The translations under genes were made by a program, and so were the position numbers. The notes below the pieces were generated by a model that was not told the origin of the DNA, did not search any database, and saw nothing but the letters and a program-made list of their open reading frames with translations. This document shows, piece after piece, positions 858-3,947 of a stretch of 64,000 nt of DNA. The stretch comes from Escherichia coli (GTDB lineage: Bacteria > Pseudomonadota > Gammaproteobacteria > Enterobacterales > Enterobacteriaceae). Location of the stretch: assembly GCF_050920415.1 (NCBI RefSeq), contig NZ_CP169309.1, one strand, 5' to 3'. Position 1 is the first letter of the stretch. Every line of letters begins with the position of its first letter.

Positions 858-2231
858 TTATTTTAATAACCGCACCCGGCACGTTTTTCCTTTAATCTTC
901 CCGCCCTGTAACTGTTTCCATGCTTTATGAGCAACAGCCTGACGCACCGCGACATAGACATGCGCCGGATGCACGGCGATTTTGCCAATATCTGCGCCAT
1001 CAAGCCCGATATCTCCTGTCAGCGCACCTAATACATCACCCGGGCGCATTTTGGCTTTTTTCCCGCCATCGATACACAACGTTGCCATTTCTGCTTCCAG
1101 CGGCACAATGGAACTATTAACTGGCGGCGTTTGCCAGTTAAGTTTTATCTGCAACATGTCAGAAATGATATTGGCCCGCTGTGCTTCTTCCGGGGCACAG
1201 AAACTGATCGCCAGACCGCTATTTCCTGCACGCGCTGTACGACCAATGCGATGTACATGAACTTCAGGGTCCCACGCCAGTTCAAAGTTCACTACCAGCT
1301 CAAGCGATTTAATATCAAGACCACGCGCAGCAACATCCGTCGCGACCAGCACACGAGCGCTACCGTTAGCAAAACGTACCAGGGTCTGATCGCGGTCACG
1401 TTGCTCCAGATCGCCATGTAACGACAATGCACTTTGCCCTATGTCATTCAGCGCGTCGCAGACAGCCTGACAATCTTTTTTGGTATTGCAAAACACCACG
1501 CAAGAGGATGGCTGATGCAAACTTAATAACCGTTGCAACAGCGGAATTTTGCCTTTGCTGGATGTCTCATAAAATTGTTGTTCAATGGGAGGCAGAGCAT
1601 CTGTTGAGTCAATTTCAATCGCCAATGGATCGCGTTGAACTCGTCCGCTGATTGCGGTGATGGCTTCCGGCCAGGTTGCCGAAAACAGAAGCGTCTGTCG
1701 AGATGCTGGCGCAAAACGGATAACATCATCAATGGCATCGCTAAATCCCATATCCAGCATGCGATCGGCTTCATCCATCACCAGCATATTCAACGCATCC
1801 AGTGATACCGTGCCTTTTTGCAGATGGTCCAGCAAACGCCCCGGGGTTGCCACGATAATATGCGGCGCATGTTGCAACGAATCACGCTGCATACCGAACG
1901 GTTGACCACCGCACAAAGTCAAAATTTTGGTATTTGGCAGAAAACGCGCCAGCCGACGCAATTCACCTGCCACCTGATCCGCCAGTTCACGCGTAGGGCA
2001 CAGCACTAAAGCCTGGGTCTGAAATAGCGACGCATCAATTTTCTGTAGCAGCCCGAGGCCAAAAGCCGCCGTTTTGCCGCTGCCGGTTTTCGCCTGCACG
2101 CGAACATCTTTTCCGGCAAGGATCGCCGGAAGCGCGGCGGCCTGCACCGGCGTCATAGTTAAATAACCCAACTCATTAAGGTTCGTGAGTTGGGCGGGAG
2201 GCAAAACATTCAGGGTAGAAAAAGCGGTCAC
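858..2231 (-). CDS. dbpA: ATP-dependent RNA helicase DbpA (DEAD-box)
   Basis: 457 aa; GSGKT Walker A, DEAD box, SAT, HRIGRTAR motifs; apparent GTG start. Confidence 0.92.
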   Translation of the reverse strand: MTAFSTLNVLPPAQLTNLNELGYLTMTPVQAAALPAILAGKDVRVQAKTGSGKTAAFGLGLLQKIDASLFQTQALVLCPTRELADQVAGELRRLARFLPNTKILTLCGGQPFGMQRDSLQHAPHIIVATPGRLLDHLQKGTVSLDALNMLVMDEADRMLDMGFSDAIDDVIRFAPASRQTLLFSATWPEAITAISGRVQRDPLAIEIDSTDALPPIEQQFYETSSKGKIPLLQRLLSLHQPSSCVVFCNTKKDCQAVCDALNDIGQSALSLHGDLEQRDRDQTLVRFANGSARVLVATDVAARGLDIKSLELVVNFELAWDPEVHVHRIGRTARAGNSGLAISFCAPEEAQRANIISDMLQIKLNWQTPPVNSSIVPLEAEMATLCIDGGKKAKMRPGDVLGALTGDIGLDGADIGKIAVHPAHVYVAVRQAVAHKAWKQLQGGKIKGKTCRVRLLK

Positions 2232-2261
2232 AATCTGTTCTCGTGGTCATCGACGCAAAAA

Positions 2262-2435
2262 TTAGCAAGCGCGTATCCTCGCAGATCTACGCTCACGATG
2301 CGACAATTTAATCGGTTCTTCATCGGGTGGTGGGTCAGGCATGGGTTGCGGGCGAGGGATTGGATCGGGCACTGGAACAGGATCGCCAGGAATCGGTTCA
2401 GGGACAGGAATTTGCAAATAAATGAGTGTCGTCAT
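2262..2435 (-). CDS. hypothetical proline-rich small protein (57 aa)
   Basis: ATG at 2435 preceded by GGAGGG RBS; Pro/Asp-rich repeat-like peptide; too short for ORF track. Confidence 0.3.
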   Translation of the reverse strand: MTTLIYLQIPVPEPIPGDPVPVPDPIPRPQPMPDPPPDEEPIKLSHRERRSARIRAC

Positions 2436-2709
2436 ATTTCCCTCCGGTCATTGGGTGGACTCTTAAAGGGTAGACGCTGATATATAACAGGCAAAAAAAA
2501 GCCGACTCATCAAAGTCGGCGTCGTACGAATCAATTGTGCTATGCAGTAATTCAAAAAAGGAAGTAAGACAATATGGAGCGCAACGCCCATCGCTTGACG
2601 TTGCATTCACCTGCAAGAGAGATATTGCCCTGAATGGGTAGAGAGTTTATTGACTTCGCTCAAACTTTGCGGCGTTTTTGTATACAGATAGTAGGGAAAA
2701 TTGCTGTTG

Positions 2710-3714
<1,005 letters not shown>

Positions 3715-3947
3715 TTATTTTGTAGTCTAGCCTTCTGGCCCTGTTACGCAACATCTCATCACCCCATTACCCTGAAATGATTAATAAAATTCTGTCTAAA
3801 TTGAATACAAAAAGCAAAATGCTTTTCCATATACAAACCGTGTGAAGTGTTAAATAGCGTCTATCATTATCAGAATTATCTGATCATATGACGTGGCTTT
3901 TTTGCGATCGGATAGCAACAAAAATTGATAAAAATAACGGGATCTCA

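Follow-up and report, generated by a model that had tools for sequence, protein, structure and literature searches.

ynaL, a proline-rich small-protein gene between fnrS and dbpA, pairs a peptide-selected core with nucleotide-invariant 3' blocks that track dbpA

Upstream open reading frames whose translation controls the next gene include secM-secA, in which the ribosome-binding site of secA is uncovered by an arrest peptide, and mgtP, the proline-codon leader of Salmonella mgtCBR. The motif DPPPD is a strong EF-P-dependent polyproline motif; proline-rich antimicrobial peptides are cationic; and DbpA, the product of the gene downstream of the frame considered here, is a ribosome-assembly helicase with a role in 50S assembly. 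The closest described counterpart of the frame itself is ynaL of Escherichia coli K-12 MG1655 (b4743, 1409308..1409481), which is flanked by fnrS (b4699) and dbpA (b1343). The gene was named by VanOrsdel et al. 2018 (PMC6001520), who noted that it had come up, still unannotated, among the positives of a tetracycline ribosome-profiling screen, saw the SPA-tagged chromosomal protein by immunoblot in LB cultures of K-12, and considered it possibly to be in an operon with dbpA. In the library searched, this is the sole paper found to mention ynaL, and no literature on the function of YnaL was found.

The locus analysed here lies in a window of 64,000 nucleotides, the whole stretch of E. coli contig NZ_CP169309.1 that was studied. 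An earlier note on this DNA had described a 57-codon minus-strand frame encoding a Pro/Asp-rich peptide, opened by a strong ribosome-binding site, ending 30 bp before the dbpA start and easily overlooked. The ORF list and the sequence agree with each element of this description: the ATG is at 2435-2433 and the TAA stop at 2264-2262, GGAGGG stands 4 nt ahead of the ATG, the gap to the dbpA GTG (2261..2232) is exactly 30 nt, and the peptide quoted at the time is contained in the 57-aa translation, MTTLIYLQIPVPEPIPGDPVPVPDPIPRPQPMPDPPPDEEPIKLSHRERRSARIRAC. That this is a genuine small coding frame is borne out by conservation, with the frame and a coding-type substitution pattern kept across Enterobacteriaceae and Erwiniaceae, and by translation data, the identical K-12 protein being the one detected both with the SPA tag and in ribosome profiling (PMC6001520). 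The observation was correct and already known, the gene having been named in 2018 and being present in RefSeq and Pfam.

All 57 residues are identical to those of K-12 YnaL (YP_009518775.1), which is likewise encoded between fnrS and dbpA, and residues 1-57 match positions 1-57 of the Pfam profile PF23677 ('Protein YnaL-like') with 136.9 bits against a cut-off of 27; profile score, K-12 identity and genomic position all place the protein in the YnaL family. Megablast searches found the fnrS-ynaL-dbpA region (2200..2720) in 5392 of 5426 complete E. coli genomes, and in 5390 of the 5426 RefSeq names the matched feature "ynaL: proline-rich small protein YnaL" or "protein YnaL". We are confident in identifying the ORF as ynaL (b4743) and in regarding it as a true small-protein gene that is translated and lies between fnrS and dbpA. 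Its coordinates and those of the surrounding features, together with the measures of selection, are collected in the table.

Table. Features of the zntB-fnrS-ynaL-dbpA locus, in coordinates of the window, with substitution measures from the codon alignment of 37 orthologues.
Feature	Position	Strand	Sequence or codons	pN/pS	pS	Basis or reading
dbpA, DEAD-box RNA helicase	858..2231	minus				ORF and annotation; DEAD, Helicase_C and DbpA Pfam domains in orthologues
dbpA, reference codons			codons 9-200	0.082	0.63	ordinary coding gene
dbpA initiation region	2218..2243	minus	weak Shine-Dalgarno CGAGA (2243-2239), GTG (2231-2229), invariant ACCGCTTTTTC			comparative alignment
ynaL CDS	2262..2435	minus	57 codons + TAA			ORF, RefSeq annotation, Pfam PF23677, identity to K-12 b4743
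ynaL block B	2268..2288	minus	AGATCTGCGAGGATACGCGCY, codons 50-56 (AGA TCT GCG AGG ATA CGC GCC)		0.017	nucleotide-invariant
ynaL, between blocks			codons 47-49	0.8	0.58	nearly neutral
ynaL block A	2298..2321	minus	GAAGAACCGATTAAATTGTCGCAT, codons 39-46		0.001	nucleotide-invariant (background pS 0.6)
ynaL Pro-rich core	2316..2390	minus	IPGDPVPVPDPIPRPQPMPDPPPDEE, codons 16-40	0.165	0.61	peptide under purifying selection
ynaL start			first ~15 codons	0.67	0.73	nearly neutral
ynaL Shine-Dalgarno	2440..2445	minus	GGAGGG			GGAGG-like motif likewise placed in almost all orthologous loci
candidate ynaL(-dbpA) sigma-70-type promoter	2467..2494	minus	-35 TTGCCT (2494-2489), 16-nt spacer, -10 TACCCT (2472-2467)			phylogenetic footprint
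fnrS sRNA	2493..2614	minus				Rfam RF01796, 134.8 bits over 2497..2614; K-12 annotation maps to 2493..2614
zntB	2710..3693					window ORF list

The allele in the window differs from that of K-12 in several respects. The coding sequences are separated by three synonymous differences, the Shine-Dalgarno sequence is GGAGGG here and the weaker AGAGGG in K-12 (a single base, G at 2445 for A), and the spacer to dbpA has 30 nt here and 29 nt in K-12, owing to one extra T. This fnrS-ynaL-dbpA allele (2200-2720) is rare: 15 of the 5392 complete E. coli genomes carry it at 99% identity or more, and most stand at about 97.5%. Five clustered changes lie at 2689-2706, just downstream of zntB. Larger changes in the region are also on record among E. 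coli genomes, including an IS200C insertion in AST205 that splits the match to 2200-2720 in two, and a disruption in STEC388, in which only 57% of the query is covered (hits H29, NZ_AP043614.1, and H40, NZ_CP041425.1). On the other side of fnrS, a 15-codon ORF just upstream of zntB (3707-3754, minus strand) corresponds to protein YnaN in RefSeq and to b4773 in K-12.

Comparisons drew on 37 to 44 orthologous loci, depending on the analysis. They came from 29 species genomes of Escherichia, Citrobacter, Salmonella, Enterobacter, Lelliottia, Silvania and Pseudocitrobacter, with added loci from Klebsiella, Raoultella, Kosakonia, Leclercia and Superficieibacter and distant ones from Phytobacter, Erwinia psidii, Mixta, an Enterobacter sp. 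and Kosakonia cowanii-type strains. The gene order zntB, fnrS, ynaL recurs in every locus retrieved, with fnrS confirmed by Rfam in the six distant loci scanned (L031, L032, L033, L036, L037 and L039). The start codon, the Shine-Dalgarno sequence and the frame of ynaL are kept in all 29 of the other-species genome loci and in 12 further loci, and because of this conservation and the low pN/pS of the core the frame is far beyond chance. The fnrS gene, with an FNR-box-like TTGAGCGAAGTCAA upstream, is almost invariant in all genera and adjoins ynaL even where dbpA is gone.

The downstream side of the locus is more variable. In Phytobacter (L036), Enterobacter sp. (L041) and Mixta (L042), ynaL is followed not by dbpA but by a terminator or by convergent ttcA (in Phytobacter a terminator hairpin comes first and convergent ttcA next), and in Erwinia psidii (L037) ttcA sits between ynaL and dbpA. 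Since Phytobacter, Mixta and one Enterobacter lineage keep ynaL without dbpA downstream, ynaL is not merely a dbpA leader. The family is narrow: a library of 1.84 billion representatives yields only 37 clusters, made up of short YnaL-like proteins whose source names, where given, all belong to Enterobacteriaceae or Erwiniaceae, together with a few long repeat-rich proteins that are taken to be compositional matches.

Selection along the gene was read from a codon alignment of the 37 orthologues that have dbpA downstream. In the Pro-rich core, proline occupies every second position, and the residues show little or no variation, while each proline position draws on three to four synonymous codons. 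Because the amino acids are kept while synonymous divergence equals the dbpA background, the core peptide is under purifying selection. The same holds in a set that includes the lineages without dbpA downstream: among Phytobacter, Erwinia, Mixta, the Enterobacter sp. and E. coli, the core has a pN/pS of 0.22 at a saturated pS of 0.76. As the core stays conserved in lineages in which dbpA does not follow, it would appear to have a role independent of dbpA. AlphaFold, run with a 30-sequence alignment, predicts no secondary structure (pTM 0.23; pLDDT about 90 for residues 21-40), a result that describes YnaL as an extended proline rod rather than a fold, and no relatives of YnaL were found in the PDB at E ≤ 1. 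Residue counts give an acidic core (about -5) and a basic tail (about +5). Length varies in the manner of repeats, as in a Salmonella protein (P0053) with a 10-residue duplication; in E. coli E69 (locus L009, 2501-2641), 11 codons of the proline repeat are lost in frame.

In the 3' third of ynaL, the constraint is on the nucleotides themselves and is concentrated in two blocks. Frozen columns in block A comprise codon 39 (GAA) and codons 41-46 (CCG ATT AAA TTG TCG CAT), and block B holds the rare codons AGA, AGG and ATA, all of them invariant. Among 37 sequences, 14 of the 16 degenerate columns of blocks A and B use a single codon throughout, compared with 1.25% of 160 comparable dbpA columns. 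Two loci carry block B outside the translated frame. The Kosakonia cowanii type (L039), a 49-aa protein encoded on hundreds of contigs, breaks off after ...PIKLSR at a double in-frame stop (TGA TAA). The 30 nt past the stops, GGCAGATCTGAGAGGATACGCGCCTGCTAA, are nevertheless identical to those of K. sacchari (L033), despite divergence of the flanking sequence and of the Pro-rich core. In L040, a short metagenome contig, the frame is broken by TAG with block B unchanged downstream; the truncated tails of both loci could be recent. Conversely, where dbpA is not directly downstream (L036, L041, L042 and L037), block B is absent, block A is diverged, as in L041, or absent, and the tail differs (..DPDPRPIVDPPPHR). 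Because the blocks are kept behind premature stops and are present only where dbpA follows, they look like an element, in the DNA or the RNA, that has to do with the expression of dbpA. The gene as a whole is thus a mosaic of a near-neutral start, a peptide-selected core and a basic tail encoded by two nucleotide-frozen blocks.

Several specific candidates for the nature of the blocks were considered and set aside. Inspection by eye of blocks A and B for sigma-70, sigma-E, sigma-28 and sigma-54 patterns gave nothing convincing. A CsrA-like hairpin with a GGA loop (GCG-AGGAUA-CGC) can be drawn in block B, but its stem is broken by the sole variant of the block, a C-to-A change in Kosakonia. A mimic of 23S rRNA hairpin 92, the DbpA target, was sought in the ynaL-dbpA junction; its local alignment to 23S nt 2454-2606 scores 14, a value that 76% of shuffled sequences (mean 15.1) equal or exceed.

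Upstream of the gene, between the FnrS terminator and the ynaL Shine-Dalgarno sequence, 34 of 38 loci share a TTGCCT-like hexamer, 16 nt of variable sequence and TACCCT. The -10 hexamer has rare variants (TACGCT, TATTTT) in which T1, A2 and T6 are retained, and its end lies 27-39 nt before the ynaL ATG in most loci; the candidate -35 element abuts or overlaps the end of the FnrS terminator U-tract, and three Citrobacter loci have a 7-nt spacer instead. A consensus promoter scan of 2100-2800 returned no site with 9 of 12 matches, and the candidate ynaL promoter scores 7 of 12. The footprint is what would be expected of a weak sigma-70 promoter. On balance, it seems somewhat probable that ynaL is transcribed from a weak sigma-70 promoter of its own abutting the FnrS terminator and, taken jointly with this, that it forms a two-gene unit with dbpA from Escherichia through Klebsiella and Kosakonia.

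The dbpA initiation region is conserved as well. All 37 loci in which dbpA comes after ynaL have retained its GTG start and its CGAGA motif, at a distance from the ynaL stop to the GTG of 14-62 nt overall and 23-30 nt in most. In the RNAalifold prediction, block A contributes GAAGAA-CG and GUCGCA to a helix whose other strand, CG-UUUUUC and U-GUG-AC, comes from the dbpA start. In the 37-sequence alignment, 98.6% of the cells of this candidate helix pair, compared with 39-60% when the partner is slid, and the helix shows one true compensatory change (A-U via G-U in L033 to G-C in L039), several wobble-compatible changes and a few broken pairs; 24 of 500 shuffles do as well. In single-sequence ensembles, its mean probability is only about 0.05, and the dbpA GUG is mostly placed in a small local hairpin (CACGA/UUGUG). 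Because of this low probability, we keep as a lead, not as a result, the idea that the dbpA start might be sequestered by block A and freed by ynaL translation. The candidate helix accounts neither for block B nor for the unpaired ATTAAATT of block A.

Three other features of the junction can be dealt with briefly. A YnaL-DbpA frameshift fusion was rejected, the dbpA frame having a stop just before the GTG in E. coli. A 31-codon ORF in an alternative frame (2228..2323, minus strand; ATG inside GATGAA) is probably meaningless: its ATG is absent in at least 7 species, and its TGA overlaps the dbpA GTG (GTGA) only through the allele-specific extra T at 2261. At the ynaL stop (2265-2282, minus strand), a terminator scan picks out GCGAGGATACGCGCTTGC with TAATTTTTGC after it; because the T-run is specific to this allele, K-12 having TAACTTTGC, a conserved attenuator at this position is unlikely.

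Two kinds of constraint within one short gene suggest two kinds of role. We give about even odds to a trans role for the Pro-rich peptide, in which it would stay extended and unfolded and serve for binding or as a spacer; its partner would not be specific to DbpA, since lineages without dbpA downstream keep the core under the same selection. More tentatively, and at rather less than even odds, the invariant 3' blocks may act in cis, as a nucleotide element, on the expression of dbpA; they would most likely do so at the RNA level, by controlling the weak GTG initiation region in a way coupled to translation of ynaL. Both roles would come together if the 3' third were dual-use, with blocks A and B serving as a cis-element that sets dbpA expression and the peptide having an independent trans role tied to the fnrS-zntB neighbourhood. 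This combination is a possibility that we put a little lower still and on the unlikely side. As an example of how it might work, GUCGCA of block A would pair with U-GUG-AC of the dbpA start, and translation of ynaL would open the start.

Among the alternatives, the one that survives best holds that ynaL is mainly a regulatory leader ORF, in which EF-P-dependent pausing at DPPPD and slow decoding of AGA, AGG and AUA tune dbpA initiation and the peptide itself is functionless. The strong polyproline motif, with its PPP at 2333-2325, sits shortly before block A. PPP persists in 33 of 37 sequences but gives way to PSP, with no Pro-Pro left, in E. albertii and in three Citrobacter loci (the Citrobacter youngae group). 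The invariance of the three rare codons and the weak Shine-Dalgarno sequence and GTG of dbpA shortly past the ynaL stop would suit such a leader, as would the nucleotide-level conservation of the blocks and their tie to the presence of dbpA, but selection on codon speed cannot explain the survival of block B untranslated in L039 and L040. A functionless peptide also sits poorly with a core that is selected as amino acids while its synonymous sites are free to change, with the retention of that core and of the same selection in Phytobacter, Mixta and the Enterobacter sp. without dbpA, and with the accumulation of YnaL to levels sufficient for an immunoblot (PMC6001520). Because PPP is not universal and ynaL survives without dbpA downstream, a pure stalling-leader reading is not the best one, and we consider it improbable; pausing may nevertheless modulate dbpA where both are present.

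Much less likely is a second alternative, by which YnaL is a relative of the proline-rich spacer of TonB, or else a peptide of the proline-rich antimicrobial type that targets the ribosome exit tunnel and is linked in this way to the role of DbpA in 50S assembly. The core does have a PRP motif and alternating prolines, and the gene next door encodes a ribosome-assembly helicase, but an acidic core is unlike the cationic antimicrobial peptides. The matches to TonB are weak and compositional: NF008084 is hit with 20.8 bits against a cut-off of 315 (E = 2.9e-4) and PF16031 with 11 bits against 33 (E = 0.68), both far under the curated cut-offs, and YnaL has neither a membrane anchor nor a C-terminal TonB domain, 57 aa being too short for either. 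The lack of relatives in the PDB and the confinement of the family to its 37 clusters likewise weigh against a wider kinship. That the frame is not a functional protein gene at all, and persists because its DNA carries promoter or RNA elements of dbpA and the fnrS terminator, would fit the nucleotide-level constraint in blocks A and B, the promoter footprint and the almost neutral first 15 codons, but has next to no probability, being already contradicted by the experimental detection of the protein (PMC6001520) and opposed by the conserved start codon and Shine-Dalgarno sequence and by invariant core prolines written in several synonymous codons at the dbpA background of pS, the opposite of nucleotide constraint.

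What gives ynaL some value is its evolutionary signature, unusually clear for a small protein not yet characterised: a proline rod selected as peptide lies beside nucleotide-frozen blocks that track dbpA. The pattern offers a concrete and cheap handle on the control of DbpA synthesis and a reason to seek a partner of YnaL other than DbpA. If the dual-use reading is true, ynaL would encode a small protein and at the same time gate the translation of a ribosome-assembly helicase.

Set against known systems, YnaL resembles the TonB spacer (PF16031, TonB_N) in its alternating X-Pro repeats, with an extended rigid rod expected of both, and this likeness is one of composition, not of homology. With secM-secA and mgtP, ynaL shares a layout in which a short ORF with a proline-dependent slow spot stands before a weak initiation region, and, as in a leader ORF, the nucleotide conservation at ynaL-dbpA spans the end of the ORF and the downstream start. 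It departs from both systems in that stalling in ynaL is putative, that PPP is not universal, so that a consecutive-proline stall motif common to all members is missing from the family, and that coupling to the downstream gene is not obligatory: unlike those leaders, ynaL is kept without the downstream gene in several lineages, and its core is selected as a protein.
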